From contig DATLUD010000060.1 of assembly GCA_035533275.1 (NCBI GenBank), positions 1-17,334 on the forward strand: a stretch of 17,334 bases of DNA. Direction: 5' to 3'. Position 1 is the first letter of the stretch, and every line of letters starts with the position of its first letter. Both the position numbers and the translations under genes were made by a program. Shown here piece after piece: positions 1-17,334 of this stretch. The notes beneath the pieces are model-generated. The model was given only the letters and a program-made list of their open reading frames with translations. It was not told where the DNA came from and searched no databases. This stretch comes from Candidatus Dormiibacterota bacterium. Lineage in GTDB: Bacteria > Vulcanimicrobiota > Vulcanimicrobiia > Vulcanimicrobiales > SCRA01.

Positions 1-270
1 ACGCTGAGAGGCGCGGTTGACGCGTGGACGGCCGGGAGCGGCGGAGAGCGGTGAAGGGGAGGGTGATGCTCCCGCCGGATCGGCGGGGCAAAAGAGCAGG
101 GCCACCCCTCCCTTCGCCGGACTACCGTACTGTAGCCAATCATGTAGCCTATCGGTGTCCGCGCCGGTTCGCGACGGCCCTCCTTGACCCGCGGTCAAAA
201 CAGCCAAAAATGCAGATACCTCGGTATTGTCGTGGCATTGTGGGTATCTGGAAAACTTGTCGGGTCATAA

Positions 271-315: not shown

Positions 316-320
316 CCGTC

Positions 321-354
321 GAAGCCCCGTCGCATCTAGTATCGGCGGGGCTTC
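321..354. terminator. Strong GC-rich hairpin: a 12-bp stem (gaagccccgtcg / cggcggggcttc, one G.U pair) with a 10-nt loop. It sits between the tRNA-like element and the convergent lipoprotein gene and is a likely bidirectional terminator.
   Basis: Inverted repeat read directly from the sequence. It lies immediately after the CCA end and 18 nt before the stop of the minus-strand gene. There is no U-tract, which is common in high-GC genomes. Confidence 0.5.
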
Positions 355-372
355 TCCGTGCTCGATCGCCGG

Positions 373-1287: not shown

Positions 1288-1450
1288 CGATGGCGCCTTC
1301 CTCGCCGACGGCCGAGGCTCCCGGCTCCGCGCCGTCGACGGCGTATGATTCTTCCCTCGACCGTTTTCCTACTAAGCGAGCGCGAGGTCGCGGACGATCG
1401 CGCGCGCCGCTTGCCGAGCGACGCGTGCGTCATCGGGGTACGATTGACCC

Positions 1451-2413: not shown

Positions 2414-3237
2414 GCCACGTGCTTGCGGTGCGGCGACTTCTTGCGGCGCTTGCGCGTCTCGTCGAGACTGCGGCGGAGGACCTCGCGGAGATCGATGACG
2501 TTCGTCGCCTTCTTGCGGGCTTTGGCCTTTCCCAAGGCCGGACGCTCGCCGCGCGCCCGAGCCTCGATGAGGGCGGTGAGCTCCTCGCGGTAGGTATCCT
2601 TGAACGCGGCGGGATCGAACGAGGCGCTCATCGCCTCGACCAGCATCGCCGCCGACTTCATCTCCGGCGCGCTGGCCTTGATGCGGTCCGAGGGCGCGTC
2701 GATCTCCGCCTCGTCCACGATCTCATCGGCATAGTGCATCAGCTCCAGCACCAGCGTCGCGCCGCGCGGCTTCACGGCCGCCACGTGCTGGCGGGTCCGA
2801 ATCACCACCTGGGCGATGCCGACCTTGCGCGTCTTGATCAAGACGTCGCGCAGCAGCCCGTAGGCGTGCCGCCCGTTCTTCTCCGGTTCCAGGTAGTAGG
2901 GCTTGTCGAAGAGCACGGGGTCGATCTCGTCGACCTGAACGAACTGCACGATGTCGATGCTCTGCGTGGCCTCCACGTCCACGCGGGCGAAGTCCTCATC
3001 GCTCACCACCACGTACCGTTCCTTGGCCGCCTCGAATCCGCGAACCACGTGATCCCATTCGACCCGCTTGCCGCAGGAGTCGCAGAGGCGCACGTTGCTG
3101 ATGCGGCCGTGGTCCTCGTCGTGGAGAAAGTGAAAGCGCAGCTCGTTCGGTCGGATGGCCGCGACGAGTCTCACCGGGATGGAGACCAACCCGAAGTTCA
3201 CCGATCCGCTCCACAGCGCGTGAGCCATCTCAGCCAT
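2410..3237 (-). CDS. ku: Ku protein, the NHEJ DNA-end-binding protein (275 aa), with a lysine-rich C-terminal tail.
   Basis: The N-terminus MAEMAHALWSGSVNFGLVSIPVRL is the bacterial Ku signature. The true start is the internal ATG at 3237, not the upstream extension in the ORF track. This ATG overlaps the stop of the upstream PE-Pol gene within ATGGCTGA. Confidence 0.9.
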   Translation of the reverse strand: MAEMAHALWSGSVNFGLVSIPVRLVAAIRPNELRFHFLHDEDHGRISNVRLCDSCGKRVEWDHVVRGFEAAKERYVVVSDEDFARVDVEATQSIDIVQFVQVDEIDPVLFDKPYYLEPEKNGRHAYGLLRDVLIKTRKVGIAQVVIRTRQHVAAVKPRGATLVLELMHYADEIVDEAEIDAPSDRIKASAPEMKSAAMLVEAMSASFDPAAFKDTYREELTALIEARARGERPALGKAKARKKATNVIDLREVLRRSLDETRKRRKKSPHRKHVA

Positions 3238-4585
3238 CCTTCCACAGACGTTGGGCCTTGGCCAGCGCGGGGCCGAGGCGCTGGGGTGTGCCGTACGAGC
3301 CGCGCCACGGATCCGCCGCCTCGGCGGCGTTCGCCAGCGACCAGCGGTGCAGGGCCTTGGCCGGCTCCGCGACGCGGCTCCGCGTCCAGCCTTCGACGGC
3401 GTCCCAGTCCAGCGGCATCGAGACGGGGGCCCCGGGCTGCGCGCGCACGGAGAACGGCGCCGCCATCGTCTTGCCCCGCCCCACCTGCGCGGCGTCGAGA
3501 TAGACGGTGCCGGGCGGGCGCTTTGCCGGCGTGCGCGCCAGGGTGACGTCGTCGGGGCGGAGCGCCGCGACGCGCAGAGCCACCAGTTCCGCGAAGCGGC
3601 GCACATCGGCGTAGTCGTGCTCCTCGCGCAGACGCACCAGCACGTGCAGGCCGCGCGAGCCGGAGGTCTTCACGCGCGAACGCAAGCCCAACTCCGAGAG
3701 CGCGTCGCGAACCGCGACGGCCACGCGCGCGATGCGCCGCAGGGGCGTCCCCGGCGTCGGGTCGAGGTCGAAGAAGAGCAGGTCGGGGCGATCGGGGTCG
3801 GAGAGGCGCGACTGCCAGACGTGGAGGGTGATCGCGGCGAGGTTGGCCAGGTAGAGCAGCGTGCGGCGGTCGTTGCAGACCACGTAGGCGGAAGGCTCGC
3901 CGTGCGCCCCGGCCGGCATGTGCTTCTCGATGAACGATTTTCCGGCGATGCCGTCGGGGTAGCGCTCGAGCATCAGGGCGCGATCCCGCAGATAGGGCAG
4001 CATCGCCGGCGCGACGCGCTCGTAGTATGCCACCAGGTCGTGCTTGGTGAGCCCCTCGCCGGGCCAGAGCACTTTCTCGGGGTTGGTGAGCGCGGCGATC
4101 TGCTTCACCGTGCGGCCGGTGAGCACGGAGGCCGGATGGGCCGAGGCGCGCCAGCGCCGATCCGCCCCGGCATCGCGCTGCTTGATCAGCAGCCACGCCT
4201 CCTCACCGGCGCGCGGCCGCATCCGCACCAAAGCGAAGGCGCCGCGCAGCTTCTCGCCGTGGAGGCCGATCTCCAGCCGCCCCGCGCGCAGCGCGTGCGC
4301 CGCGGAGCCGCCGTCGAGCAGCTCGTAGGTGCCGGCGTCCCAGACGATCACCTCGCCCGCGCCGTATCTCCCTTCCTCGATGCGTCCCTCGAAGTCGTAG
4401 TAATCGAGCGGGTGGTCTTCCACGCGAATCGCCAGGCGGCGCACGCCCGGATCGAGCGATGGCCCCTTGGGGACCGCCCACGACGCCAGCGCGCCGCCGA
4501 TCTCAAGCCGGAAGTCGTAGTGCAGATGACGCGCGTGGTGGAGCTGGACCACAAAGCGCGGCTCGCGCGCCTTTTTCGTAGTCAT
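3230..4585 (-). CDS. LigD-type bifunctional 3'-phosphoesterase plus primase-polymerase (PE-Pol) protein with no ligase domain (451 aa).
   Basis: The N-terminal PE domain carries FVVQLHHARHLHYDFRLE. The Pol domain carries the DxD motif LLFFDLDPTPG, the SGSRGLHVLV motif and VYLD. It forms an operon with ku. Confidence 0.88.
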   Translation of the reverse strand: MTTKKAREPRFVVQLHHARHLHYDFRLEIGGALASWAVPKGPSLDPGVRRLAIRVEDHPLDYYDFEGRIEEGRYGAGEVIVWDAGTYELLDGGSAAHALRAGRLEIGLHGEKLRGAFALVRMRPRAGEEAWLLIKQRDAGADRRWRASAHPASVLTGRTVKQIAALTNPEKVLWPGEGLTKHDLVAYYERVAPAMLPYLRDRALMLERYPDGIAGKSFIEKHMPAGAHGEPSAYVVCNDRRTLLYLANLAAITLHVWQSRLSDPDRPDLLFFDLDPTPGTPLRRIARVAVAVRDALSELGLRSRVKTSGSRGLHVLVRLREEHDYADVRRFAELVALRVAALRPDDVTLARTPAKRPPGTVYLDAAQVGRGKTMAAPFSVRAQPGAPVSMPLDWDAVEGWTRSRVAEPAKALHRWSLANAAEAADPWRGSYGTPQRLGPALAKAQRLWKDG

Positions 4586-4658
4586 GGCCAGTACATACCC
4601 ACCGAAGCCTCGCCGGCGCTTGCCCCGCGCTCGGGCGCGCGCAGGTTGATGAGGAAGC

Positions 4659-5927
4659 GTGCGACAACCTGGGAGAGTGACATCCTCCGGCCTCGGTTAC
4701 CTCTTCGCCGGGCGCGCGATCCGCAGCTTCATGCAGAGCTATCTGGCGGTCGTGGTTCCGCTCTACCTGCTGTATCGCGGCTTCTCGCCGTTCGCGATCG
4801 GCGTGCTGGTCACGTGCGCGGCCGGCACGGGGGCGCTGCTCTCCGTGCTGGCGGGATTCGCCGCGGATCGCTACGGCCGCAAGGTCGTCCTGATCACGCT
4901 CTCGCTGGCGGGAGCGGCGGCCGGCGCGCTCTTCGCGCTGAACGGTCCGTATGCGGCGCTGGTGGCGGCGGGTGCGCTGGGATCGATCGGACGCGGCGGC
5001 GGAGCGGCCAGCGGCGGCGCGTTCGGGCCGTACTATCCCGCCGAGCAGGCGCTCTTGGCCGAGCGCATCGCCGACCACCGGCGCACGGCGCTCTTCGGGA
5101 TGTTCTCGTTCGTGGGCGTGATCGCCGGCGCGCTCGGCTCGCTCGTGAGCGCCGCGCCCGAGGTGGCGCTGCGCTTCCGCTTGACCACGCGCGGCGGCGG
5201 CTACGACGCCGTCTTCTGGCTCACCGCCGCGCTCGGCCTCGTCTTGGCGGCCAGCGTGCTCCCGATCCCGGAGTCGCGCGCGGCGCGCCGCCCCGCGCAG
5301 TCACAGGCCCCGCTCTCGGCGCGCACGCGGCGCCTGCTGGTGCGCCTGGGAGCGACCAACGCCACCAACGGGCTGGCCGTCGGCTTCCTCGGCCCGATCC
5401 TCACGCTGTGGTTCCATCTGCGGTTCGGCGCGGGCGAGGTGCAGATCGGGACGCTCTTCTTTCTGATGAACCTTGTGGGCGCCGTGCCGTACCTCCACAT
5501 CTCGCGAATCGTCCGCATGGTGGGGGGAGCGGTGCGGACCATCGTGTCGGTGCGCATCATCGCGTGCGTGCTGTTGGCCGTCGTCCCGTTCATGCCCACG
5601 TTCTGGACGGCGGGGGCGCTCTACCTCGTGCGCATGCTCTTCAACGTGATCTCCCTGCCCGTGCGGCAATCGTTCGTCATGGGCGTGGTGCCGCCGGAGG
5701 AGCGCTCGCGCGTGGCGGGGCTGTCGAACTTTCCAGCGCAGGTGCTGCAAATGGTCGGCCCCGCCATGGCGGGGGCGATGTTCGAGAACTTCTGGATCGG
5801 CGCTCCGCTGCTGTTGGCCTCGGCGCTCCAGCTCGTCAACGCGGGGCTCTACTGGACGTTCTTTCGCGGCGTGCTCCCGCCGGAGGAGCAGAAGCTCATG
5901 CGGCCTCCGGTGCCAGGGCGCTCATGA
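4659..5927 (+). CDS. Major facilitator superfamily (MFS) transporter (422 aa, GTG start).
   Basis: Twelve hydrophobic segments and the GxxxDRxGRK-like motif (ADRYGRKVV) between TM2 and TM3. The start is uncertain by a few codons. Confidence 0.8.
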   Translation: MRQPGRVTSSGLGYLFAGRAIRSFMQSYLAVVVPLYLLYRGFSPFAIGVLVTCAAGTGALLSVLAGFAADRYGRKVVLITLSLAGAAAGALFALNGPYAALVAAGALGSIGRGGGAASGGAFGPYYPAEQALLAERIADHRRTALFGMFSFVGVIAGALGSLVSAAPEVALRFRLTTRGGGYDAVFWLTAALGLVLAASVLPIPESRAARRPAQSQAPLSARTRRLLVRLGATNATNGLAVGFLGPILTLWFHLRFGAGEVQIGTLFFLMNLVGAVPYLHISRIVRMVGGAVRTIVSVRIIACVLLAVVPFMPTFWTAGALYLVRMLFNVISLPVRQSFVMGVVPPEERSRVAGLSNFPAQVLQMVGPAMAGAMFENFWIGAPLLLASALQLVNAGLYWTFFRGVLPPEEQKLMRPPVPGRS

Positions 5928-7071
5928 CCTCGAAGAGGCTGCGCTTGCCCTCGAAGCCGATGCCGGGGAGCTCGGGGAGCGCCACGTGGCCTTCCACCAC
6001 GCGGACGCCGTCGGGAAAACCCCCGGTCGGCTGGAAGAGGTCGGGATACGACTCGTTGCCGCCCAATCCCAAGCCCGCGGCGATGTGCAGGGAGAGCTGG
6101 TGCCCGCCGTGGGGGATGCAGCGGCGCGGCGACCAGCCGTGGTCGCGGAGCATCTCGAGCGTGCGCAGATACTCGACCAGGCCGTAGCTGAGCGAGCAGT
6201 CGAACTGCAGCACGTCGCGGTCGGCGCGCATGCCGCCGTGGCGGATCAGGTTGCGCGCGTCCTGCATGGAGAAGAGGTTCTCTCCCGTCGCGAGCGCCCC
6301 GTCGTACGCCGCGGCCACCTCGGCGTTCAGGGCGTAGTCGAGGGGATCGCCGGGCTCCTCGTACCACCGCAGGCCGTACGGCATCAGCGCCTCGGCGTAG
6401 CGCAGCGCCGTCGCCAGGTCGAATCGCCCGTTGGCGTCGACGGCCAGATGCTCCCCCGAGCCCACCACCTCCAGCACGGCCTCGATGCGCCGCAGGTCGT
6501 CGTCGAGGGGCGCTCCGCCGATCTTCATCTTGACGACCGTGTAGCCGCGCTCGAGGTAGCCGCGCATCTCGCGTTTGAGAGCGTCGTGATCCTTGCCGGG
6601 ATAGTAGTAGCCTCCGGCGGCGTAGACGAAGACCCGCTCGTCGGTATCGCCGCCGCGGTAGCGATCGGCCAGCACCCGGAAGAGCGGGCGACCTTCGATC
6701 TTGGCCACCGCGTCCCAGACGGCCATGTCGATCACGCCGACGGCCACGGAGCGCTCGCCGTGTCCCCCCGGCTTCTCGTTCGTCATCAGCGTAGCCCAGA
6801 TCCGGGAGGGATCGAGGTTGGCGCCCTCGGGCGTCAGCAGCGTCTCGGGCGGCGCGGCCATGATTCGCGGAATGAATCGCTCGCGCAACAGGCAGCCTTG
6901 AGCGTAGCGGCCGTTGGAGTTGAAGCCGAATCCCACCACCCGGCGGCCGTCCCGCACCACGTCGGTCAGCACGGCGACGATGCTGGTGGTCATGGTGCTG
7001 AAGTCGATGTAGGCGTTGCGGATCGGGGAGCTGATGGGGATCGTGGTCTCGCGGACCTCGACGATCCTCAC
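5896..7071 (-). CDS. Enolase-superfamily enzyme of the mandelate racemase / acid-sugar dehydratase subgroup (391 aa).
   Basis: KxK motif (VVKMKIGG), metal-ligand context (AVDANGRFD, WYEEPGDP) and a C-terminal catalytic His (IPHGGH). The GTG start at 7071 overlaps the upstream TGA within GTGA, with GGAGG 10 nt upstream. The long N-terminal extension in the ORF track is spurious. Confidence 0.8.
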   Translation of the reverse strand: MRIVEVRETTIPISSPIRNAYIDFSTMTTSIVAVLTDVVRDGRRVVGFGFNSNGRYAQGCLLRERFIPRIMAAPPETLLTPEGANLDPSRIWATLMTNEKPGGHGERSVAVGVIDMAVWDAVAKIEGRPLFRVLADRYRGGDTDERVFVYAAGGYYYPGKDHDALKREMRGYLERGYTVVKMKIGGAPLDDDLRRIEAVLEVVGSGEHLAVDANGRFDLATALRYAEALMPYGLRWYEEPGDPLDYALNAEVAAAYDGALATGENLFSMQDARNLIRHGGMRADRDVLQFDCSLSYGLVEYLRTLEMLRDHGWSPRRCIPHGGHQLSLHIAAGLGLGGNESYPDLFQPTGGFPDGVRVVEGHVALPELPGIGFEGKRSLFEVMSALAPEAA

Positions 7072-8147
7072 GGACGCACCGCCTCCTCGGAGGCCGCGGC
7101 GCGGGCGATGGCGGCTCCCATCTCGTGCGTCGAGGCCGTTCCGCCCAGGTCGCGCGTGCGCGGGCCATGCTCCAGCACGTGCTCGATCGCGCGCTCCACG
7201 GCGGCCGCCGCATCGGCATGCCCCAAGTGCTCCAGCATCATCGCTCCCGACCAGATCTGGCCCACCGGGTCGGCGATGCCTTGGCCCGCGATGTCGGGAG
7301 CGGAGCCGTGCACGGGCTCGAACATCGAGGGGAAGTCGCGCTCCGGGTTGAGGTTGGCCGAGGGGGCGATGCCGATGGTTCCCGCCACGGCGGGACCGAG
7401 ATCGGAGAGGATGTCGCCGAAGAGATTCGAGCCGACCACCACGTCGAACCAGTCCGGATGCTGCACGAAGTGCGCCGTCAGGATGTCCACGTGGTACTGG
7501 TCGGTGCGGACGTCGGGATAGTCGGCCTTCATGGCGGCGAAGCGCTCGTCCCAGTAAGGCATCGAGAAGACGATGCCGTTGGACTTGGTGGCGGAGGTCA
7601 GGTGCTTCTTCGGCCGCCGGCGCGCCAGCTCGAAGGCGTAGCGCAGGATGCGGTCGACGCCGCGGCGCGTGAAGACCGTCTGCTGGACCACCAGCTCCTC
7701 GTCGGTTCCGGCGTAGAGGCGGCCGCCGATCTCCGAATACTCCCCCTCGTTGTTCTCGCGCACCACGTAGAAGTCGATGTCGCCGATGCCGCGCCCGGCC
7801 AGCGGCGAGGTCACCCCGCGCATCAGACGGACGGGGCGCAGGTTCACGTACTGGCGGAACTGGCGGCGGATGGGGATGAGCAAGCCCCACAGAGAGACGT
7901 GGTCGGGGACGCCGGGATAGCCGACGGCGCCGAGAAAGATGGCGTCGTGGCGGGCGATCTGCTCCAGCCCATCCTCGGGCATCATCCGCCCGTGCTGCGC
8001 GTAGTGCTCGCAGCTCCACGGGAGAATGTCCCAGGTGAAGGAGATGCCGAAGCGCTTCCCCACGGCGTCGAGGACCCTCATGCCCTCGGGGACCACTTCC
8101 TTGCCGATGCCGTCTCCGGGAATGACGGCGATGCGATACTGCCTCAC
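7068..8147 (-). CDS. ttuC: Tartrate dehydrogenase/decarboxylase, also D-malate dehydrogenase, of the TtuC/DmlA type in the isocitrate/isopropylmalate dehydrogenase family (359 aa).
   Basis: Near-collinear identity with E. coli DmlA/YeaU (YRIAVIPGDGIGKEV ... NLFGDILSDLGP ... FEPVHGSAPDIAG). The GTG start at 8147 is preceded by GGAGG at a 6-nt spacing. Confidence 0.88.
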   Translation of the reverse strand: MRQYRIAVIPGDGIGKEVVPEGMRVLDAVGKRFGISFTWDILPWSCEHYAQHGRMMPEDGLEQIARHDAIFLGAVGYPGVPDHVSLWGLLIPIRRQFRQYVNLRPVRLMRGVTSPLAGRGIGDIDFYVVRENNEGEYSEIGGRLYAGTDEELVVQQTVFTRRGVDRILRYAFELARRRPKKHLTSATKSNGIVFSMPYWDERFAAMKADYPDVRTDQYHVDILTAHFVQHPDWFDVVVGSNLFGDILSDLGPAVAGTIGIAPSANLNPERDFPSMFEPVHGSAPDIAGQGIADPVGQIWSGAMMLEHLGHADAAAAVERAIEHVLEHGPRTRDLGGTASTHEMGAAIARAAASEEAVRP

Positions 8148-8200
8148 GTGAGCCCTCCTGAAACGAAGAGAAGCGTTCACGCGGTCGCCGCGTCCGACCT

Positions 8201-8247
8201 CCAAGGTGGCGCCTTGGCCATCTGGCTAACGTAGGGGGATGGCCAAG
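8201..8247 (+). promoter_or_regulatory. Overlapping inverted repeats (CCAAGG/CCTTGG and CTTGGCCAT/ATGGCCAAG). The second repeat encloses the ribosome-binding site and start codon of the CP ATP-grasp gene. It is a candidate translational-control hairpin or operator.
   Basis: Perfect 9-bp arms at 8213-8221 and 8239-8247, with the GGGGG SD sequence in the loop. A 6-bp IR at 8201-8206/8212-8217 offers an alternative pairing. Confidence 0.4.
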
Positions 8248-9704
8248 ACGCGAATCGGCGCCTCAGTGTTCGAGACGGAGCAGGAGTACGCGCTGGGGAC
8301 CCACTTCGACGAGTTCTTCGAGCGCGACGGCGTTGCTCGCGAGCACTACGCCGGGCTCGTCGAGGCGTTGGCGGAATATCCACGCGAGGAGGTCCTGGGC
8401 CGCGTCCAGTCCATCAACGCGGCGCTCCTCCAGCGGGGAGTGACCTTCACCGTCTACGCGGATGCCAGCGGCATCGAGCGCGTCTTCCCTTTCGATCTGA
8501 TCCCGCGCATCCTGCGCGCGGAGGAATGGAGCCGCATCGAGCGGGGCATCGCCCAGCGCGTGCAGGCGCTCAACGCCTTTCTCCACGACGTCTATCACGA
8601 TCAGCGCATCCTGCGCGAGAAGCGCGTCCCCGCGGACCTGGTCTACTCGTGCAAGCACTTCTGCCGGGAGATGGTCGGCGTGGACGTGCCCGGCGGCGTC
8701 TACGTGCACGTCTCGGGGATCGACCTCATCCGAGACGAGCGCGGCGAGTTCTTGGTCCTGGAAGACAACTGCCGGACGCCCTCGGGGATCTCGTACGTGC
8801 TCGAGAACCGGGACGTCCTGAAGCGGAACTTCCCCGACCTCTTCGCGGGATACGCGGTGCGTCCCGTGGACGACTATCCCCGCCGCCTGCTGGACGTCCT
8901 GCGCCACGCGGCGCTGCAGTGGCGGGAGAACCCGACCGTCGTGGTGCTGACGCCGGGCATCCACAACTCGGCCTACTTCGAGCATGCGATGCTCGCGCGG
9001 CGCATGGGAGCCGAGCTCGTGGAGGGGCGCGACCTGGTGGTGATCGACGACGTTGTCTACGTGAAGACGACGCGCGGCCTCCAGCGGGTGGACGTCATCT
9101 ACCGGCGCGTCGACGACGACTTTCTCGATCCTCTGTACTTCATCCCCGAGTCGGTGCTCGGCGTGACGGGGCTGCTCGATGCCTACCGGGCCGGCAACGT
9201 GGTGCTGGCCAACGCGATCGGCACGGGCGTCGCCGACGACAAGTCGGTCTATCGCTTCGTTCCGGAGATGATCCGCTTCTACTTGGACGAGGAGCCCGTC
9301 CTGGGCGTCGTGCCCACGTTCGATTGCACGGACCCGGCGCAGCGCCGCCACGTGGTGGGGCATCTCGCGGATCTGGTGGTGAAGAGCACGGCGGCCTCCG
9401 GCGCTACGGCATGCTGATGGGGCCCTACGCCGACGCGGCCGAGCGGGAGGAGTTCGCGCGCAAGATCGAGGCGAACCCGCGTGAGTTCATCGCTCAGCCC
9501 GTGATCTCGCTCTCGTCGCATCCCACGCTGGTCGACGGCGTGCTGGCCCCCAGGCGCGTCGATCTCCGCCCCTTCGCCCTCTACGGGCGTGAGGTGGACG
9601 TCCCACCGGCGGCCCTGACCCGCGTGGCCCTGCGCGAAGGCTCGCTCGTGGTCAACTCCTCGCAGGGGGGCGGCAGCAAAGACACCTGGGTGCTGCAGGG
9701 GTAG
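8239..9704 (+). pseudogene. Circularly permuted ATP-grasp type 2 protein (DUF404/DUF407 family; ~489 aa if intact). It is interrupted by a 1-nt deletion near 9403, which leaves two ORFs, 8239..9417 and 9411/9381..9704.
   Basis: The N-terminal part matches the family up to VVKSTAASG. The C-terminal part (YGMLMGPYADAAEREEF ... IAQPVISLS ... VDLRPFAL ... SLVVNSSQGGGSKDTW) is in the -1 frame. Changing tccggcgctacggc to tccggcggctacggc restores the conserved SGGYGML motif. Confidence 0.8.
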
Positions 9705-9712
9705 CGAAGCAT

Positions 9713-10654
9713 ATGCTGACGCGAGTCGCCGATTCGCTGTACTGGCTCGGGCGCAACATCGAGCGCGCCGAGACGATCGCGCGCATCCTGGACGTGAACT
9801 ACACCCGCGCCATGGATCTCTACTCCATGCGAGACGGGCGCGGGGAGCATCTGTGGCGCTCCGTGATGCGTTGCGCGGGGTTCGTGGCGGATCCCCAGCT
9901 GCCCGCAGGGGGACGCGTGGCCGCCGAGGTGATCGCCTTCTGCGGCCTCGACCACGAGAATCCGTACTCGCTGCGCTCGTCCATCCGCATCGCCAGGACC
10001 AACGCGCTGGGCATCCGGTCGGAGCTGACCAGCGAGGTCTGGGAGACCGTGAACGCGCTCTACCTCTACGCGGAGGAGCAGGAGGCGCGCAGCGTCCTGC
10101 GCAGCGGGCCCTCGAAGTTCCTGCGGCGCGTGCGGGACGCGGCGCATGCCTTCGCGGGGGTGACCTCCGAGACGCTGACCCACGGGGACCGTTGGTCGTA
10201 TCTGGTGGTGGGGCGCTTCTTCGAGCGCGCCTATATGACGGTGCGCATGCTCGACGCGGTGGACATCGAGCGCGAGCCGTGGCCCGAGGCCCAACGCCTT
10301 CTGGAGATGTGCTGCGCGGGGGAGCCGTTCACCCAGACCGTCGGCCATGCCTCCGAGCCGCGCGACGTGCTGGAGTTCCTGATCCTGCACCGCCAGTTCC
10401 CCCGCTCGCTGCACTTCTGCATGCGCCGGGTCGACGAGGCGATGCACGCGATCTCCGGCACGCCGCCCGACACGTTCGCGAACGACGCCGAGCGCCGCCT
10501 GGGGCGAGCGCGGGCCATGCTCGACTACGCCTCGATCGGCGACGTGCTCGGCGGCGGTCTGCCGGCGTTCGGAGCGGCCATGCGCGAGGAGTTCGAGGCG
10601 CTGCACGCCGCCATCTCTGCGAGCTATCAGCCCGGCATGGTGGGGGCCCCGTGA
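9713..10654 (+). CDS. Alpha-E domain protein (DUF403; 313 aa), the partner of the CP ATP-grasp.
   Basis: N-terminus MLTRVADSLYWLGRNIERAETIARILDVN. It starts 8 nt after the ATP-grasp stop. Confidence 0.85.
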   Translation: MLTRVADSLYWLGRNIERAETIARILDVNYTRAMDLYSMRDGRGEHLWRSVMRCAGFVADPQLPAGGRVAAEVIAFCGLDHENPYSLRSSIRIARTNALGIRSELTSEVWETVNALYLYAEEQEARSVLRSGPSKFLRRVRDAAHAFAGVTSETLTHGDRWSYLVVGRFFERAYMTVRMLDAVDIEREPWPEAQRLLEMCCAGEPFTQTVGHASEPRDVLEFLILHRQFPRSLHFCMRRVDEAMHAISGTPPDTFANDAERRLGRARAMLDYASIGDVLGGGLPAFGAAMREEFEALHAAISASYQPGMVGAP

Positions 10655-10656
10655 GC

Positions 10657-11517
10657 ATGGAATACACGATCGCTCACGAGACGTCGTACTGGTACCCGCA
10701 GCCCGTGGTCGAGAGCTACACGGTGGTCCACCTCCAGCCGCGCAACGACGCGACGCAGTACTGCACCCGTTTCGAGCTCAGCGTGAAGCCGCGCGCGGGC
10801 GTTCGGAGCACCGTGGACCGGTACGGCAACGGGGTGCAGCACTTCGAGATCCTCTCCAGCCATCAAGAGCTGACGGTGCGCGCCAGCTCGACCGTGGTGA
10901 GCCTGGCCCCGCGGACGGTCGGCGAGCCGAGCGAAGCGACCCTGGAGCTCCTGCGGAGCGATCCGGAGCTGGACCTGCTCTACGACTTCGTGCAGGAGAG
11001 CGCGTACGTGCAGTTTGCGCCGGAGGTCGCGGGGTTCGCGGCGGATCTGGCGCCGCGGGGCGACCGCATCGGGGCGTGGTGCGGCGAGGTGTCGCGGGCG
11101 ATCCACCGGCGCCTGCGCTACGACACCACCGCGACGAGCGTCCGCTCCACCGTCGTGGAGGCACTGCAAAGCCGGGCCGGAGTCTGTCAGGACTTCGCGC
11201 ACGTGATGATCGCCGTGCTGCGCTCCGCGGGCATTCCCGCGCGGTACGTGAGCGGATACGTCTTTCGCGGCGAGACGGCGCCGGGAATCTTGGGGGCGGA
11301 GGCCTCGCACGCGTGGTGCGAGGCCTATCTCCCTCCGTACGGCTGGGTCGGATTCGACCCGACCAACGACGTCTTGGTCAACGACCAGTTCGTGCGCGTG
11401 GCCATCGGGCGGGACTACCACGACGTCAGTCCGGTCCGTGGCGTCTACAAGGGCTCCGGGAGCAGCGAGATGTCCGTCAACGTCGCCATGGATGCCCTGC
11501 AGTTTGCCCAACAGTAG
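10657..11517 (+). CDS. Transglutaminase-like cysteine protease/transglutaminase (Bact_transglu_N plus TGase core; 286 aa).
   Basis: Cys-His-Asp core (GVCQDFAHVMIAVLRSAGIPARYVSGY ... ASHAWCEAY ... GFDPTN). The ATG is 3 nt after the alpha-E stop (GTGAGCATG). Confidence 0.85.
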   Translation: MEYTIAHETSYWYPQPVVESYTVVHLQPRNDATQYCTRFELSVKPRAGVRSTVDRYGNGVQHFEILSSHQELTVRASSTVVSLAPRTVGEPSEATLELLRSDPELDLLYDFVQESAYVQFAPEVAGFAADLAPRGDRIGAWCGEVSRAIHRRLRYDTTATSVRSTVVEALQSRAGVCQDFAHVMIAVLRSAGIPARYVSGYVFRGETAPGILGAEASHAWCEAYLPPYGWVGFDPTNDVLVNDQFVRVAIGRDYHDVSPVRGVYKGSGSSEMSVNVAMDALQFAQQ

Positions 11518-11535
11518 CGCGCCGGTTCGCCTCCG

Positions 11536-11769
11536 TCACTCGATGCGCCCGAGGACGTCGCCTCGGTGCACCACCTCGTTGGCGGCCTTGAGGGTCCGCA
11601 GCCTCCCGTCGGCCGGCGCGCGGATCTCCAGCGTCGCCTTGAGCAGCATGAACTCGGCGATCAGGTCCCCGTGGCGCACGGCGGCGCCGTCGTCGGCGAG
11701 CCAGGTGGTGATCACCCCGTCGGCGACGCCGTTCCAGAGCTCGTCGGGAACCACGATGTCGACGGCCAT
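11536..11769 (-). CDS. Free-standing lipoyl/biotinyl-attachment domain protein (77 aa) that ends the E1 operon. The lysine motif is atypical (EFMLLKATLEI instead of ETDKA).
   Basis: Aligns to E2 lipoyl domains (IVVPD ... KATLEI.AP.DG). The ATG at 11769 is 7 nt after the E1 beta stop. Confidence 0.75.
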   Translation of the reverse strand: MAVDIVVPDELWNGVADGVITTWLADDGAAVRHGDLIAEFMLLKATLEIRAPADGRLRTLKAANEVVHRGDVLGRIE

Positions 11770-11776
11770 GCGGGCT

Positions 11777-12817
11777 CTAGGCTCCCCGTCCCGCGAGCGC
11801 GGCCATGCTCTCGTACGCGGCCACGATCTTGGCGGGATTGGGCAGGGCGAACTCCTCCATCGGGCGCGAGTAGGGAATGGGGATGTCGGGGTAGCCCACG
11901 CGCTTGGGCGTGGCCTTGAGCATCGAGACGTCGTGCTCGACCACGGTCGCCATGATCTCGCCCGTCATCCCGTAGCTTTGATAGTCCTCGTCCACCACGA
12001 TGAGGCGCCCGGTCTTGCGCACGGAGGCGATCACGTGCTTGCGGTCCAAGGGCACCAGCGAGCGCAGATCGATCACCTCCGCGGAGACGCCTCGATCGGC
12101 CAGCAGGTCGGCGGCCTTGAGGGCATGATGGACGCCGGAGGTGATGCCGACGATCGTGACGTCGGTACCCTCGCGCACGGTGGCCGCCTTGCCGATGGGC
12201 ACCGTGTAGGCTTCCTCGGGCACCCCGACGATCGACGCCGGCTCCGTGCCGAGCCACCCCATGCCCTGCAAGCCCTTGTGGAAGAGATAGATGACGGGGT
12301 TGTCGTCGCGGATGGCCGCCGTCATCAAGCCCTTGGCGTCGTACGCGTTCGACGGCGCGACGACTTTCATTCCGGGCAAGTGGGCGAACGTGCCGTGGAG
12401 GCACTGGGAGTGCTGTCCCGCGTCGCTGTAGCCGCCGCCGGTGGCCGTCATCAAGACCATCGGAACCCGCACGCTCCCGCCGGAGAAGTACGTGTTCTTG
12501 GCCATGAAGTTGTAGATCGCGTCCATGCAGACCCCAAAGAAATCGACGAACATCAGCTCGACGACGGGGCGCATGCCGTCGGCCGCGGCCCCGGCCGCGG
12601 CGCTGATGAACGCTGTCTCGGAGATCGGCGTATCGCGCACCCGCTCGGCGCCGAACTCCTCGTACAGGCCGCGCGTGTTGCCGAAGACGCCGCCGAGCTT
12701 GGCGATGTCCTCGCCCATCACGAAGACGCGCGGGTCGGTGCGCATCTCTTGCGCGATCGCCTCTGCCATGGCCCGCGCGATGGTCAGCTTGCGGGCGCTG
12801 GGTGTGCCGTTGCTCAT
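11777..12817 (-). CDS. Thiamine-diphosphate-dependent 2-oxoacid / acetoin dehydrogenase E1 component, beta subunit (AcoB/PdhB-like; 346 aa).
   Basis: Transketolase-like pyrimidine-binding and C-terminal domains (ISETAFISAAAGAAADGMRPVVELMFVDF ...). The ATG at 12817 is preceded by GAGGAG at a 6-nt spacing. Confidence 0.88.
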   Translation of the reverse strand: MSNGTPSARKLTIARAMAEAIAQEMRTDPRVFVMGEDIAKLGGVFGNTRGLYEEFGAERVRDTPISETAFISAAAGAAADGMRPVVELMFVDFFGVCMDAIYNFMAKNTYFSGGSVRVPMVLMTATGGGYSDAGQHSQCLHGTFAHLPGMKVVAPSNAYDAKGLMTAAIRDDNPVIYLFHKGLQGMGWLGTEPASIVGVPEEAYTVPIGKAATVREGTDVTIVGITSGVHHALKAADLLADRGVSAEVIDLRSLVPLDRKHVIASVRKTGRLIVVDEDYQSYGMTGEIMATVVEHDVSMLKATPKRVGYPDIPIPYSRPMEEFALPNPAKIVAAYESMAALAGRGA

Positions 12818-12837
12818 GGTATTCTCCTCACTCGCGC

Positions 12838-13824
12838 CTAGACGAAGACCTTGTCCAGAGCCGCCGCGGGCTCGGGGTAGGGACTGCGCCGCGCGAACGC
12901 GATCGCGTCGTCCACGCGCTTGCGCGCGCGGGTGACGATCTCCGCATCCTCTTGCGGCGTCAGGGCGTCGACGGTGGTCAAGTACCCGCGGTAGGCCGGG
13001 ATGGGATCCCTGGCCGCGAGCATCTCGAGCTCCTCCTTGGGACGATACTGCTGCGCGTCCCCCATGAAGTGGCCGGAGAGGCGGAGCGTCTCGATCTCGA
13101 TGAGCGAGGGGCCTTCGCCGTTGCGGGCGCGCTCGATGGCTTGCCCGGCGACTTTGAAGACCTGGAGCACGTCGTTGTTGGCCACGTAGTGTCCCGGGAT
13201 GCCGTAGCCGATGGCGCGGACGTCGTTGTGCTCCACGGGCGTCGAGGCGCTCTTGGGAACGGAGATCGCCCACGAGTTGTCCTCGATCACGAAGATCACC
13301 GGAAGCTTCCAGATGGCCGCCAAGTTGAGCGCCTCGTGGAAGGCGCCTTGGTTGGCCGCCCCTTCTCCAAGGTACGCCACCGCCACGCCGTCCTTGCTCT
13401 GGAGCTTGCGCGAGAGGGCGGCGCCCACCGCCGGCCCCACGCTCTGGCCGATGATGCCCGAGCACGAGAAGTTGACGGCGGGATCGAAGAGGTGCATGTG
13501 GCCGCCGCGGCCGCCGCTCAGCCCGTCGCCCTTGCCGAAGATCTCGGCCGCCATCTTGTCGAGATCGACGCCTTTGGCGATGGCGACGTGGTGGGCGCGG
13601 TGCGTCGACGTCACCACGTCGGTCGGCTTCAAGTGGATGCAGACGCCCGCGGCGCACGGCTCTTGCCCCTTGGAGAGATGCATCTCGCCGGGTATCGGCC
13701 CGCTTGCCATGTTGAAGACCGGTGTCTTGCCTTCGAGATAGATCGCCTCGATGGTGTCCTCGAAGTAGCGCGAGGCCACCATCCGTTCGTACATCCAGAG
13801 CTTCTGCTCTCGCGTGGGTAACAT
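12838..13824 (-). CDS. Thiamine-diphosphate-dependent dehydrogenase E1 component, alpha subunit (AcoA/PdhA-like; 328 aa).
   Basis: TPP-binding motif (YLGEGAANQGAFHEALNLAAIWKLPVIFVIEDNSWAIS) and the phosphorylation-loop region. GGAGG lies 5 nt before the ATG at 13824. Confidence 0.88.
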   Translation of the reverse strand: MLPTREQKLWMYERMVASRYFEDTIEAIYLEGKTPVFNMASGPIPGEMHLSKGQEPCAAGVCIHLKPTDVVTSTHRAHHVAIAKGVDLDKMAAEIFGKGDGLSGGRGGHMHLFDPAVNFSCSGIIGQSVGPAVGAALSRKLQSKDGVAVAYLGEGAANQGAFHEALNLAAIWKLPVIFVIEDNSWAISVPKSASTPVEHNDVRAIGYGIPGHYVANNDVLQVFKVAGQAIERARNGEGPSLIEIETLRLSGHFMGDAQQYRPKEELEMLAARDPIPAYRGYLTTVDALTPQEDAEIVTRARKRVDDAIAFARRSPYPEPAAALDKVFV

Positions 13825-13862
13825 GACGCCTCCCTTCCCCAGGACGTGATGAGCCTGCCGTA

Positions 13863-13873
13863 GGCATTATGCC
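13863..13873. promoter_or_regulatory. An 11-bp perfect palindrome, GGCATTATGCC, in the 72-bp divergent intergenic region between the E1 alpha gene and the PolDom-like gene. It is a candidate operator for a dimeric regulator.
   Basis: Palindrome read from the sequence, flanked by CCTG/CAGG. It is the only AT-containing symmetric site in this short divergent promoter region. Confidence 0.3.
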
Positions 13874-13896
13874 CACGTCAGGCGCGGCATCTCGCC

Positions 13897-14817
13897 GTGA
13901 TCAGACTACAGGCCTATGCGCGCGTTGCCGCGAAGCATCCACCAGGTTGCTTTGACGCTCGCGGAGGGCGTGTGGAGACGGGGCTTCAGACCGCACTCGC
14001 TCAACACTATGCGCTGGTGCAAACGCAGCTGCTCGAGGCCGTCGGCGGACGCCCCGTGGCAGGCTTGCGAGCCCCGCACGGACTGCCGGCTGGCTTCGTC
14101 CAGCACGATCTCGGCGCCGGGGCACCCATACCGACGTTCGAGCACGTCGGCGAGGACGGCCTCTCGATCCGCGTCGCGCTGCTCGAGTCCCCGGAGCATC
14201 TCGCCTTCATGGTCCATCTGATGACGGTGGAGATGCGGCCGTGGTGCTCCGGGGCCGAGCACGCCGAGGCGGGCTTGGGCGACGTGCTCGCCTTCGAGCT
14301 GGAGGCCGTTGAGCCGGCAGACGCGGCGCTGATGCGGCGCGGAGCTCTGCTGCTGCGCGACGCGCTGGCCGCGGTGGGTCTTGGATCCAACGTGCAGCTG
14401 GCCAAGCCGCCGGGGCTCGACGTGCTGGTGCCGCTCGACCGCGGCTACCCGGTCTCGCAGCTGCGCGCGGCGGAACGCTTCCTCGCCGGAGAGCTCACGC
14501 GGCGCCACCCGGACGTCTTCAGCATCGCCTACTATCGCTCGCAACGCGCCGGGCGCGTCCACCTCGGCACCGGTGCCAAGGGCGTCTCGCGCACCTACCG
14601 CGCGCCGTACTCGCTGCTCGCGGTGCCGGGGCTCTCCGTGGCCCTGCCGATCACCTGGCGCGAGCTCGAGCGCGACGCCAACGCCCCCGTGGCGGCACGT
14701 GACCTGCCGGCGTTCCTGCGCGCGCACCCGCGCGACCCCGACGCGGGCGTTTCGCCGCAGAATCCGCTGGAGCTGCTGGTGCGCGCCGAGGAGGCGCGCC
14801 CGCGTGATGGAGAGTGA
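13897..14817 (+). CDS. Divergent, probably catalytically inactive paralog of the LigD primase-polymerase (PolDom) domain (306 aa).
   Basis: Collinear similarity to the Pol domain of the PE-Pol protein in this window. Every catalytic position is substituted: FFDLDP becomes AFELEA, SGSRGLHV becomes AKPPGLDV, and VYLD becomes VHLG. The start is a GTG at 13897, or alternatively 13972. Confidence 0.7.
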   Translation: MIRLQAYARVAAKHPPGCFDARGGRVETGLQTALAQHYALVQTQLLEAVGGRPVAGLRAPHGLPAGFVQHDLGAGAPIPTFEHVGEDGLSIRVALLESPEHLAFMVHLMTVEMRPWCSGAEHAEAGLGDVLAFELEAVEPADAALMRRGALLLRDALAAVGLGSNVQLAKPPGLDVLVPLDRGYPVSQLRAAERFLAGELTRRHPDVFSIAYYRSQRAGRVHLGTGAKGVSRTYRAPYSLLAVPGLSVALPITWRELERDANAPVAARDLPAFLRAHPRDPDAGVSPQNPLELLVRAEEARPRDGE

Positions 14818-14828
14818 CGACGCGGCGC

Positions 14829-15170
14829 CTACTCTTTGCCGATTTTCTGATTCTCGTTGTTGAGAAGAAAGATCTTGTCGGCGTGGCGAACGCCGAGGCC
14901 CTTCTGATCATAGAAGATGCCGACGTAGCGCCCTGGCTTGATGGCCTTCATTTGGTACGTCGTCTTGCCGTCGGCGGAAAAAATCTGATCGAACTTTGGC
15001 ACGAGAACGAAACTCAATGTCTGGTGCGTCGTCGGGCTATAAACCTTTATGTTATCCATCGAGACATGTTTCGTGATACCGTAGAACGTCGAAGCGGCAA
15101 GCGCGGCGTTCGGCGCCAGCATGGCGATGGCGGCTGTGAGCGAAATCAGTATCATGCTCATGTGTTTCAT
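14829..15170 (-). CDS. Small secreted protein of unknown function (113 aa) with a Sec signal peptide and AxA cleavage site. Its GC content (~52%) is atypical for the region.
   Basis: The N-terminus MKHMSMILISLTAAIAMLAPNAALAAS has a signal-peptide pattern. GGAGG lies 7 nt before the ATG at 15170. The codon usage is AT-rich, unlike its neighbours. Confidence 0.7.
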   Translation of the reverse strand: MKHMSMILISLTAAIAMLAPNAALAASTFYGITKHVSMDNIKVYSPTTHQTLSFVLVPKFDQIFSADGKTTYQMKAIKPGRYVGIFYDQKGLGVRHADKIFLLNNENQKIGKE

Positions 15171-15525
15171 GCGTTTTCCTCCAGGCCGATCGGGACGGGC
15201 TCGGTCGCCATCGTCGCATCACGGATCACCATCGCAGCGGACCGTTCTCTGTGCACCAGGGTTACCGAGCTGCGCCATGCGGCGCTTGCTCCGGCGGCGT
15301 CGGCAAATCAATTGTAGCTGGCGTAGCTCGCGTCTGCCAATCGTTGAAACGAGGGATGCGGTGCCGGCGTTATCCCCAGTTTCCACGATACCTGAACCGT
15401 GGCGGCTGTGGTACGCTGACGCCGGTGCCGCCGCGCGGCGCAGCGCGACGGCGGCGGATACCGCGAAACCTTGGCCGCAATGCCAAAACGGTTCCGACGC
15501 GCAAGATCTCAAAAGAGGTAGCAAG

Positions 15526-16350
15526 GTGCTGATCGGATTCTTCGGTCCATTCGTCGTGGTCGTCGTGCTCCTGATCGTGGTGAGCGCGTCCGTCAAAGTG
15601 TTGCGCGAATACGAGCGCGGCGTCGTCTTTCAGATGGGCCGCTTCTCGCGCGTCAAGGGGCCGGGCCTCATCCTGCTCGTCCCCTTCGTCCAGCAAATCG
15701 TTCGAATCGACTTGCGGACGATCGTCATGGAAGTTCCGAGTCAAGATCTGATCTCTCGCGACAACGTCTCGGTCAAAGTGGACGCCGTTCTTTACTTCCA
15801 TGTCGTGGATGCGGCCAAGGCCGTCATCCAAGTGGAGCAATTCGTCGCGGCGACAAACTTGCTCGCGCAGACTACGCTACGCTCGGTTTTGGGTCAGCAT
15901 GACCTCGATGAGATGCTGGCAGAGCGCACACGGCTCAACACGGACATTCAGGACATCCTCGATACGCGAACCAAAGCATGGGGCATCGAGGTGAGCGCGG
16001 TCGAGATTCGTGACGTCCAGCTGACGGAGAACATGGTCAAGGCGATCGCCAAGCAAGCAGAAGCCGAGCGCGATCGGCGCGCAAAGGTGATCCATGCCGA
16101 AGCCGAGTTCCAGGCATCGCAGGTGCTCGTCAACGCTGCGACGATTCTTGGATCGATCCCGGCGGCGATGCAGTTGCGCTATCTGCAGACCCTGACCGAG
16201 GTGGGAGGAGAGCACAATTCAACGATCGTGTTCCCCATGCCGCTCGACATCGTCAAGCCATTCTTGGATATCCTCGAGAGAGCGGCAGCCCCGGCCCCCG
16301 CCAGCGCGATGGTCACGAACGGGCTCAAGCTCACGGTGCCGCCGGCGTAA
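15526..16350 (+). CDS. SPFH/band-7 (stomatin-like, slipin) membrane protein (274 aa).
   Basis: N-terminal TM segment (LIGFFGPFVVVVVLLIVV) and an SPFH domain (VLREYERGVVFQMGRF ... IRDVQLTENMVKAIAKQAEAERDRRAKVI). The GTG start is preceded by AAGAGG. Confidence 0.85.
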   Translation: MLIGFFGPFVVVVVLLIVVSASVKVLREYERGVVFQMGRFSRVKGPGLILLVPFVQQIVRIDLRTIVMEVPSQDLISRDNVSVKVDAVLYFHVVDAAKAVIQVEQFVAATNLLAQTTLRSVLGQHDLDEMLAERTRLNTDIQDILDTRTKAWGIEVSAVEIRDVQLTENMVKAIAKQAEAERDRRAKVIHAEAEFQASQVLVNAATILGSIPAAMQLRYLQTLTEVGGEHNSTIVFPMPLDIVKPFLDILERAAAPAPASAMVTNGLKLTVPPA

Positions 16351-16424
16351 GAGTGCGCTGGCCCGATGGCCATGGGACCGGGTGATGAAGGAGATGGCCG
16401 CACCTTGGTTGCTTGCGCGGCGCG

Positions 16425-16760
16425 TCAGGATGGCGCGCCGGTGGGCGGGAGGGGCTGGTTCGTTGCGTCGTGCCGGCGCGCGGAAGCCGCGCCGATCACC
16501 GCGTTGTAGACCCAGGCCACGATGGCGCCGCCGAGCGCGGAGATGGCCACGAACCAGACGAAGCCGATCAGCCCGAAGCCGCCATAGCCCCAGCCCATGT
16601 GCGGGTAGCCGGGTGCGCCTCCGTACGGGCCCCGCATCACGGATCCCATGCCGTACATGAACGGCATGCCCATCGAGAGCGATGCGAGGACCCCTAGCGC
16701 GGCGAAGCCCGCGGCCAGACCGGCAGGGCTCAAGGGGTGGTAGCGTGGTGTCTCGTTCAT
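16425..16760 (-). CDS. Small glycine/tyrosine/methionine-rich membrane protein (111 aa) with two predicted TM helices. Function unknown.
   Basis: GGAGGA lies 7 nt before the ATG at 16760. The two hydrophobic segments flank a GPYGGAPGYPHMGWGYGG loop. The N-terminal extension in the ORF track is spurious. Confidence 0.6.
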   Translation of the reverse strand: MNETPRYHPLSPAGLAAGFAALGVLASLSMGMPFMYGMGSVMRGPYGGAPGYPHMGWGYGGFGLIGFVWFVAISALGGAIVAWVYNAVIGAASARRHDATNQPLPPTGAPS

Positions 16761-16819
16761 CGTCGTCTCCTCCGGGGCGCGGGCTCCATCGATAGCGTAC
16801 CCACGTTGGGAGACGCGGC

Positions 16820-17334
16820 ATGCGCGCGTCACGAATAGGCTGGATGGCCCTACGCGGAGAAGTCGACCCGGACATGAAACCCCTGCTCTCGCTTCAGTAC
16901 GTGCCGGCCGGCACGGGATACCGCCTGCGGCTGGGGCCCCTCGAGTTCAGCCAGAGCTCGTTCCTGATCCTCACGGCCGTCGTCGTCGGCGGCAGCTGCG
17001 GCCGGGAGGGGCCGATCGTGCAGATCGGCGCGACCATCGGCTCGGTCTTGGGGCAGATCGTCCAGGCCCCCGCGCCCATCGTTCGAACGCTGGTCGCCTG
17101 CGGGGCGGCGGCCGGCATCTCCGCAACCTTCAACGCCCCCATCGGGGGCGTCTTCTTTGCCAGCGAGGTGATCCTCGGCGACTTCGCGCCGCACTCGTTC
17201 GCGGCGATCGTCGTCTCCAGCGTCACGGCCGCCGTCATCGGGCGGGCCTATCTGGGCGATCGCCCCTCGTTCGACGCCGCCGGCTTCAAGTTGATCTCCG
17301 GGCAGGAGCTCTGGCTCTACGCGCTGCTGGGGAT
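16820..17334 (+). CDS. ClC-family chloride channel/transporter homolog (partial; continues past the window end). Its N-terminus is short relative to canonical ClC proteins.
   Basis: GREGPIVQIGATIG, TLVACGAAAGISATFNAPIGGVFFASE and LWLYALLG align collinearly with E. coli ClC-ec1 from helix D onward. The start could be the ATG at 16820, 16844 or 16874. A stop at 16793 in this frame excludes an upstream continuation. Confidence 0.7.
   Translation, partial: MRASRIGWMALRGEVDPDMKPLLSLQYVPAGTGYRLRLGPLEFSQSSFLILTAVVVGGSCGREGPIVQIGATIGSVLGQIVQAPAPIVRTLVACGAAAGISATFNAPIGGVFFASEVILGDFAPHSFAAIVVSSVTAAVIGRAYLGDRPSFDAAGFKLISGQELWLYALLG

Follow-up and report, generated by a model that had tools for sequence, protein, structure and literature searches.

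Introduction

The adjacent genes for a circularly permuted (CP) ATP-grasp protein, an Alpha-E protein and a transglutaminase-like protein form one of the most widespread conserved bacterial gene clusters without a known function. Descriptions of this triad as the core of the 'Anbu operon' go back to 2008-2009, as does the question of its chemistry. Here we describe a copy of the triad in a 17,334-nucleotide stretch of DNA (contig DATLUD010000060.1, positions 1 to 17,334; called the window, and meaning the whole stretch) from an uncultured soil bacterium labelled Dormibacterota. The window copy is an ordinary further member of this group of loci, and its local novelty lies in its ATP-grasp gene, which carries a one-base deletion and would represent a natural ligase knock-out allele coexisting with intact alleles.

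According to Valas and Bourne (2008), the proteasome homologue Anbu usually shares its operon with COG2308, COG2307 and COG1305, and in Pseudomonas putida this Anbu operon was among the genes most strongly induced by nitrogen limitation (PMC3235984). Induction on nitrate as compared to ammonium was also seen for PP_2685 (proteasome beta subunit) and PP_2688 (CP ATP-grasp) of P. putida (PMC8050072), and the operon genes of Burkholderia cenocepacia are dependent on NtrC and sigma-54 (PMC5491218). The prediction of Iyer et al. (2009), as summarised by Fuchs et al. (2017), was that of a peptide-synthesis system; Fuchs et al. themselves observed that co-expression of the operon proteins left Anbu unchanged, with no different form of the protein, and that the operon was non-essential (PMC5666114). 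In their words Anbu 'frequently' co-occurs with the triad, so that its presence is not obligatory (PMC5666114). Papers on the Anbu operon name the families either as DUF404/DUF407, DUF403 and a transglutaminase-like domain, or as the three COGs.

Rv2411c-Rv2409c of Mycobacterium tuberculosis is presumably the same triad, and we take Rv2567 to be a fusion of the ATP-grasp and Alpha-E proteins. Escherichia coli lysates in which Rv2411c or Rv2567 was expressed failed to produce GABA-trehalose (bioRxiv 10.64898/2026.04.15.718621). This negative result was the sole experimental mention that we found, and no paper in the literature to 2026 was found to give the triad a biochemical function. A paper on Rv2569c describes that protein as a serine protease, with no mention of transglutaminase, and was set aside as evidence. 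An earlier reading of the window, made from the letters without database searches (the sequence-only reading), had described the triad as an uncharacterised, predicted peptide system, and the literature, with no known substrate, agrees with that status (PMC3235984; PMC5666114).

The Anbu-operon cores of P. putida (PP_2685-PP_2688) and B. cenocepacia (I35_5080-5083) comprise the same three families, tightly linked on one strand. Unlike the Anbu operon, the window has neither an Anbu gene nor a second large transglutaminase gene among its scanned open reading frames (ORFs); no Proteasome-family match was obtained among these ORFs, or among the gene calls of two near-identical contigs (L001 and L002, described below). 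The window copy differs further from the cores found in Proteobacteria and Cyanobacteria in its host, an uncultured bacterium labelled Dormibacterota with its closest homologues in Eremiobacterota, and in the frameshift of its ligase gene.

Domain composition of the triad

Three genes on the plus strand fill positions 8239-11517 of the window, encoding in order the CP ATP-grasp protein (8239-9704, as a first ORF and a C-terminal piece in another frame), the Alpha-E protein (9713..10654; 313 aa, identical to NCBI HVA38237.1) and the transglutaminase-like protein (10657..11517; 286 aa, identical to NCBI HVA38238.1). They are separated by gaps of 8 bp and 2 bp. After restoration of one G, the ATP-grasp product (488 aa) matched the Pfam family CP_ATPgrasp_2 over the complete profile (E 1.6e-161, 1-374/374) and CP_ATPgrasp_1 with an E of 3e-149, PF04174 and PF14403 being the circularly permuted ATP-grasp domain. 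The 313-aa protein matched Alpha-E (PF04168; E 3.1e-74, profile 1-293/294), while the 286-aa protein contained Bact_transglu_N (E 5.6e-20) and Transglut_core (E 5e-24). Searches with the three proteins gave no match in NCBIfam or to the PADLOC defence-system models, their Pfam matches did not include the CHAP amidase domain, and no Rfam family was matched in the window at gathering thresholds.

The Cys-His-Asp triad of the transglutaminase-like protein (C177/H218/D234) is intact, and at least 97% of the 80 homologues linked to a triad keep each of these residues. Two G-R-x-x-E-R motifs are present in Alpha-E (R14/E17/R18/E20 and G167/R168/E171/R172); in the alignment, R14, R18, E20, G167, R168 and R172 were invariant, and E17 and E171 were conserved in at least 90% of the sequences. 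The AlphaFold model of Alpha-E (predicted local distance difference test score 90.9) is all-helical with 15 helices, and structural comparison of Alpha-E revealed no informative relative.

Conservation and genomic context

We scanned one genome per species and obtained 80 loci from Eremiobacterota, Binatia, Verrucomicrobiota, Planctomycetota, Acidobacteriota, Armatimonadota and Cyanobacteria, and counted synteny on those with 2.2 kb or more of downstream sequence (71 loci). The gene following the ATP-grasp gene encoded Alpha-E on the same strand in 71/71 loci, and the full triad was present in the same order in 67/71, across seven phyla. This arrangement is far beyond chance. The sequence-only reading had placed three consecutive, closely packed genes at 8239-11517, had assigned them to the CP ATP-grasp, Alpha-E and transglutaminase-like families, the last with a Cys-His-Asp site, and had called the neighbourhood conserved; the domain searches recovered exactly those families, the coordinates and the catalytic residues were as it had proposed, and the order and orientation of the genes were conserved across the phyla named above.

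Homologues of the ATP-grasp protein at E ≤ 1e-20 fell into at least 8,000 clusters (90% identity). The nearest ones outside the species were 73-78% identical, and those labelled with a taxon were from Eremiobacterota (Vulcanimicrobiaceae and Baltobacteraceae). The surroundings of the triad differ among close relatives (the window, L085/L086, L005 and L087-L089; numbers with L denote the loci compared), and since the flanking genes differ even at this distance, the three genes travel as a unit. In L085 and L086 (75% identical), for example, the triad lies between methylmalonyl-CoA mutase and MeaB, and appears to be inserted into an otherwise coherent pair. Genes for Hsp20 and Lon lie 1-5 kb from the triad, on varying sides, in five Eremiobacterota-type loci (L005, 10313-13206; L007, 10294-13221; L087, 1799-4707; L088, 12081-15013; L089, 11517-14422), and S9 or Tricorn-type peptidases are found near the triad in L005, L085 and L088. 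A classical extended operon was seen in L023 (Tundrisphaera sp. TA3), where a proteasome-family (Anbu-like) ORF at 11467-12354 lies two genes after the transglutaminase gene. The Hsp20, Lon, S9/Tricorn-type and EamA genes seen in relatives were all absent from the window.

Clustering of all flanking ORFs of the 80 genome loci revealed no universal fourth partner. We inspected 15 recurring clusters, identifying their members by eye from the sequence; the real genes among them were all from Verrucomicrobiota loci and were housekeeping-like (SecA, apolipoprotein N-acyltransferase, tRNA-guanine transglycosylase and others), and the remaining clusters were spurious high-GC ORFs. The triad is a self-contained module with a loose, lineage-dependent link to proteolysis genes, and the window copy confirms that it moves as such a unit between unrelated genomic contexts.

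Several further features of these loci were recorded. An EamA gene stands beside the Hsp20 and Lon pair wherever the sequence is long enough (L005, L087, L088 and L089). Tandem double triads occur in several Verrucomicrobiaceae: a second, divergent copy of triad genes lies directly upstream in L060, L064, L065, L071, L074, L077 and L079-L083 of the Verrucomicrobiota, the carriers being Prosthecobacter, Verrucomicrobiaceae and one Opitutaceae metagenome-assembled genome (MAG; L079). The second ATP-grasp protein of these loci is 32-39% identical to the query, and a second Alpha-E was detected only in L064, L071, L077 and L080-L083. In a Binatia MAG (L006, 7730-11538), the A and B subunits of a hydantoinase/oxoprolinase directly follow the triad, a single instance that could hint at gamma-glutamyl or 5-oxoproline chemistry.

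A one-base deletion in the ligase gene

Using the exact Alpha-E protein, we found four metagenome contigs that were 99.4-99.9% identical to the window (L001-L004). In L001 (ENA ERZ27256799), the ATP-grasp gene is uninterrupted, encodes 488 aa and reads TCC GGC GGC TAC GGC ATG (S-G-G-Y-G-M), whereas the window, L002 (ERZ27256814), L003 (ERZ27256801) and L004 (JGI 3300031670) all read TCCGGCGCTACGGCATG, one G short. The window sequence at the site is GGCGCTAC, as compared to GGCGGCTAC in the intact allele. The missing G is from a GGCGGC that is reduced to GGCGC at 9400..9404 on the plus strand (codon 389), within a K-x4-SGGYGML loop. The first ORF (8239..9417, plus strand; 392 aa) therefore holds the N-terminal four fifths of the ligase and ends after the frameshift with ...VVKSTAASGATAC and the stop, its C-terminal residues being ...LVVKSTAASGATAC. 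The second ORF (9417..9704, plus strand; 95 aa, MGPYADAAE...WVLQG) holds the C-terminal fifth in the shifted frame, and its ATG overlaps the stop of the first ORF in a TGATG at 9415-9419. Gene calls on L002 show the same split into 392 aa and 95 aa.

The contigs carrying the deletion differ among themselves by single-nucleotide polymorphisms (SNPs; 99.5-99.9% identity), and because these other positions differ between them, they are independent assemblies of related strains. Two more intact 488-aa alleles were found on JGI contigs (P0243 and P0245), one of which has Y340 and Y397 like the frameshifted haplotypes, so that the population of this species comprises four frameshifted and three intact contigs. 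The H397/Y397 SNP is no marker of the deletion: L001 has H397 and the frameshifted contigs all have Y397, as does the intact P0243. The one-base deletion is a real allele. The claim that the ATP-grasp gene is frameshifted had been made from the window by itself, and the identical deletion in three other independent metagenome contigs confirms it.

An alignment of 120 homologues showed K382, S387, G388, G389, G391, M392 and L393 to be present in 120/120 sequences and Y390 in 117/120, and the solved orthologue 3n6x contains the same VVK-x4-SGGYGML stretch. The deletion turns SGGYGML into SGATAC-stop after K382, and puts the last 95 residues out of frame, including the invariant C-terminal NSSQGGG-KD segment. 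A lysine and a flexible, glycine-rich phosphate loop are expected in the ATP-grasp superfamily, and the AlphaFold model of the intact allele fits this arrangement, with K382 on strand 379-383 and residues 388-392 forming a low-confidence loop. The conserved lysine and an intact glycine-rich loop, contiguous with the C-terminal Mg/ATP-binding segment, are present in the L001 allele and absent from the window. Because the deletion falls inside an invariant loop, the ligase of the window strain is probably inactivated, and the loop is lost whether or not reinitiation at TGATG yields a C-terminal piece. In L003 and L004, moreover, CCC is changed to TTC (P429F) where 120/120 homologues have a proline, which fits a relaxed constraint on a broken gene. 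Most likely, judging from these sequences, the triad in the window strain is a partly decayed, non-functional copy, and an intact allele persists in the same species.

We then compared the two partner genes across five sequences (the window and L001-L004). The Alpha-E gene had 5 SNPs, all of which (5/5) were synonymous. The transglutaminase-like gene also had 5 SNPs, of which three were synonymous and two were conservative (T95S and E104K) and lay in a variable linker. The SNPs form mutually incompatible patterns, an indication of recombination, and we therefore make no claim of selection after the frameshift arose.

Fold relationships and proposed chemistry

The structure 3N6X (Mfla_0391 of Methylobacillus flagellatus) is an orthologue of the ATP-grasp protein (E 7e-171 over residues 21-487), and is 54% identical to our ATP-grasp model in a structural alignment. 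It shares the VVK...SGGYGML stretch, at which the window copy is broken. It was deposited by structural genomics as a 'putative glutathionylspermidine synthase', and we found no function assigned to it. A search of the PDB with the sequence profile of the ATP-grasp protein returned only 3n6x, with neither glutathionylspermidine synthetase (GspS) nor any other characterised enzyme.

We also compared the AlphaFold model of the intact allele with solved structures using Foldseek. The best matches following 3n6x were all carboxylate-amine ligases that share the permuted ATP-grasp fold, beginning with glutathione and homoglutathione synthetases (E 1e-14 to 1e-12) and including the E. coli glutathionylspermidine synthetase/amidase, YgiC/YjfC, trypanothione synthetase and the fungal E-64 ligase Cp1B (PMC12568646). 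The best characterised matches, the eukaryotic-type glutathione/homoglutathione synthetases and Cp1B (E 1e-14 to 4e-11, template modelling score 0.54-0.60), are ATP-dependent carboxylate-amine ligases that act on small substrates; they are 11-14% identical to the ATP-grasp protein, have no Alpha-E or transglutaminase partners and belong to another biological context. The fold evidence thus makes small-substrate amide ligases the closest characterised relatives of the triad ligase.

GspS of E. coli and trypanothione synthetase have the same circularly permuted ATP-grasp fold as the triad ligase (Foldseek E 1e-11 to 1e-7). In GspS, the ligase is coupled to a papain-like thiol amidase, by which the ligation is undone, and this pairing parallels that of the triad's ligase with a thiol enzyme of the transglutaminase fold. 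The likeness is at the level of the fold only, with no detectable sequence relationship. Moreover, the thiol enzyme of the triad is a separate protein, whereas GspS has a fused CHAP domain and no Alpha-E partner.

We propose, with a probability of roughly 0.6, that the region is a self-contained CP ATP-grasp/Alpha-E/transglutaminase-like module for amide ligation, the ligase of which is disabled in this strain. The ATP-grasp enzyme would use ATP to activate the carboxylate of a substrate as an acyl-phosphate, whose coupling to an amine would give an amide or isopeptide bond, with a small peptide, amino acid or amine as the predicted substrate. Alpha-E would be the obligate partner of the ligase and, as its subunit, could confer specificity, regulate the enzyme or provide a scaffold. 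The Cys-His-Asp transglutaminase-fold enzyme may cleave or transfer the bond via a thioester intermediate, in a manner similar to the synthetase/amidase pairing of GspS. The one-base deletion would disable the ligase step in the window strain. Ligation of small substrates is favoured because the enzymes matched by fold all join the carboxylate of a small acid or peptide to an amine.

Alternative explanations

A number of observations weigh against this proposal of a small-substrate amide ligase that is disabled in the window strain. The ligase chemistry is argued from analogy of fold only, the family having no member with a known substrate or product, and the profile search described above reached no characterised enzyme in the PDB. 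The Alpha-E and transglutaminase-like genes appear, from their SNPs, to show no sign of decay. The TGATG overlap would allow translation of a C-terminal fragment and hence a weakly active, two-chain enzyme, and the contigs are consensus sequences of populations. Finally, the triad is linked to proteases, with Anbu occurring in Proteobacteria and L023, and Lon/Hsp20 and S9/Tricorn-type peptidases occurring in contigs of the Eremiobacterota type; these links would fit a protein-directed role at least as well as one directed at small molecules. These associations make a serious rival of a system for protein tagging and turnover, which we regard as possible but clearly the less probable of the two. 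Here the ligase would add an amino-acid or peptide tag to proteins, or build a peptide on them, the transglutaminase-like enzyme would remove or transfer the tag, and a compartmentalised protease (Anbu, Lon or Tricorn-like) would degrade the tagged proteins, for example in the recycling of nitrogen. The induction of the Anbu operon under nitrogen limitation, its dependence on NtrC and sigma-54, the rise of PP_2685 and PP_2688 on nitrate, the proteasome-like ORF in Tundrisphaera and the proximity of Hsp20, Lon and the peptidases all speak for such a role. Against it, no gene for Anbu, Lon or any other protease occurs in the 17-kb window, the closest folds of characterised function all belong to enzymes with small substrates, and co-expression in the study of Fuchs et al. 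gave no different form of Anbu. The position of the protease neighbours also varies, and common ancestry within a single phylum could account for them; the recurring neighbour clusters that we inspected across the 80 loci were housekeeping-like, with real genes in Verrucomicrobiota only.

The remaining alternatives concern the frameshift. That it arose in sequencing or assembly, and that the ligase is intact in the living organism, could be suspected of a single-base indel in a GC-rich GGCGGC context of consensus contigs; but four contigs that were assembled separately, come from different samples and repositories and differ elsewhere share the identical deletion, two of the frameshifted contigs are also substituted at an invariant proline, and the intact allele assembles readily in L001 from the same study series. 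We consider an artefact extremely unlikely. We also think it very unlikely that the frameshift gives a functional split enzyme, in which termination and reinitiation at TGATG yield two chains that assemble, or that ribosomes bypass the site. The overlap of stop and start codons, the frequency of the allele (4/7 contigs of the species) and the apparent constraint on the downstream partner genes speak for this explanation. However, G389, Y390 and G391 are lost in the split, from a loop with essentially no variation among the 120 homologues and 3n6x, there is no slippery X-XXY-YYZ heptamer near 9397-9417, the P429F change of L003 and L004 affects an invariant position in what would be the second chain, and all 80 of the 80 genome orthologues are single, uninterrupted matches. 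Programmed frameshifting was rejected, given the lack of a heptamer, the intact allele in the same species, the uninterrupted orthologues and the extra damaging substitution downstream in some of the frameshifted contigs. An unlikely alternative to simple decay is that the frameshift is maintained as an on/off polymorphism, possibly because Alpha-E and the transglutaminase-like enzyme retain a function independent of the ligase, or possibly because the TGATG overlap gives a two-chain ligase. If true, natural populations of this soil bacterium would switch the module between states, and the hairpin at the start codon, described below, could be a second, translational layer of control.

The window copy brings the chemistry of the triad no nearer to a solution, because the organism is uncultured and its ligase is broken. 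The natural pair of intact and frameshifted alleles could, however, be a ready-made control for heterologous reconstitution.

An inverted repeat at the start codon

The sequence-only reading had noted an inverted repeat enclosing the start codon of the ATP-grasp gene, and this repeat is indeed present at 8209..8251 (plus strand), with arms GCGCCTTGGCCATC (8209-8222) and GATGGCCAAGACGC (8238-8251). Each arm has 14 nt and is complementary to the other at 13/14 positions, with a spacer of 15 nt between them, and the 3' arm contains the ATG at 8239. RNA folding of 8200-8260 gave a minimum free energy of -26.4 kcal/mol (z = -1.96), in a structure where an 11-bp core stem takes in the start codon and, just upstream of it, the final two G of the G-run. 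This is the sole repeat of such quality in the 17.3-kb window; first-order Markov shuffles gave a mean of 0.53 per window, with at least one in 10/30 shuffles. The repeat is identical in L001, which has the intact allele, and is unrelated to the frameshift. It was not present upstream of the 73%-identical orthologues in L005 and L007 and is, on the sequences compared, lineage-specific. The sequences available for covariation are thus 99%-identical contigs with an identical repeat, and the next relatives (73%) are without it. The repeat could act as a translational hairpin or as a palindromic operator. Membership in a repeat family was rejected, as near matches to one arm elsewhere in the window (13 observed against 4.6 expected, with up to three mismatches) were weak and lay inside coding sequence.

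Upstream of the ATP-grasp gene, a divergent intergenic region of 91 bp (8148..8238) separates it from an Iso_dh-family gene on the minus strand, which has a GTG start at 8147 preceded by GGAGG, as seen in the sequence and in gene calls on the near-identical L001. The promoters of both genes presumably lie within 8148-8238. A scan of 7900-11900 for promoters and terminators found no promoter-like (sigma-70-like) or terminator-like site. Together with the tight spacing of the three genes, the lack of such sites within the triad gives indirect support to their putative co-transcription as one operon.

Other genes in the window

The genes upstream of the triad in the window encode a major facilitator superfamily transporter, an MR_MLE protein and the Iso_dh protein (sugar-acid-type). 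On the 3' side, a stand-alone lipoyl-domain protein of 77 aa (11536-11769, minus strand) is encoded after a 2-oxoacid dehydrogenase E1 pair, E1-beta (11777-12817, minus strand) and E1-alpha (12838-13824, minus strand), and no E2 catalytic domain accompanies them in the window. The lipoyl-domain gene converges on the transglutaminase-like gene, with the two stops 18 bp apart, and this arrangement is identical in L001-L004.

A set for non-homologous end joining is present as separate genes at 1451-4585, comprising an ATP-dependent ligase (plus strand), Ku (minus strand) and the LigD phosphoesterase and PrimPol (minus strand). A second stand-alone PrimPol is encoded at 13972-14817, about 9 kb from the other genes of this set. 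Positions 1 to ~350 of the window do not align with L001 and L002, which are otherwise 99% identical, and mark a strain-variable junction. The G+C content of the window is ~68-70%, and falls from ~0.69 to 0.60-0.64 at 14500-16500, around an SPFH/Band_7 gene (15526-16350).

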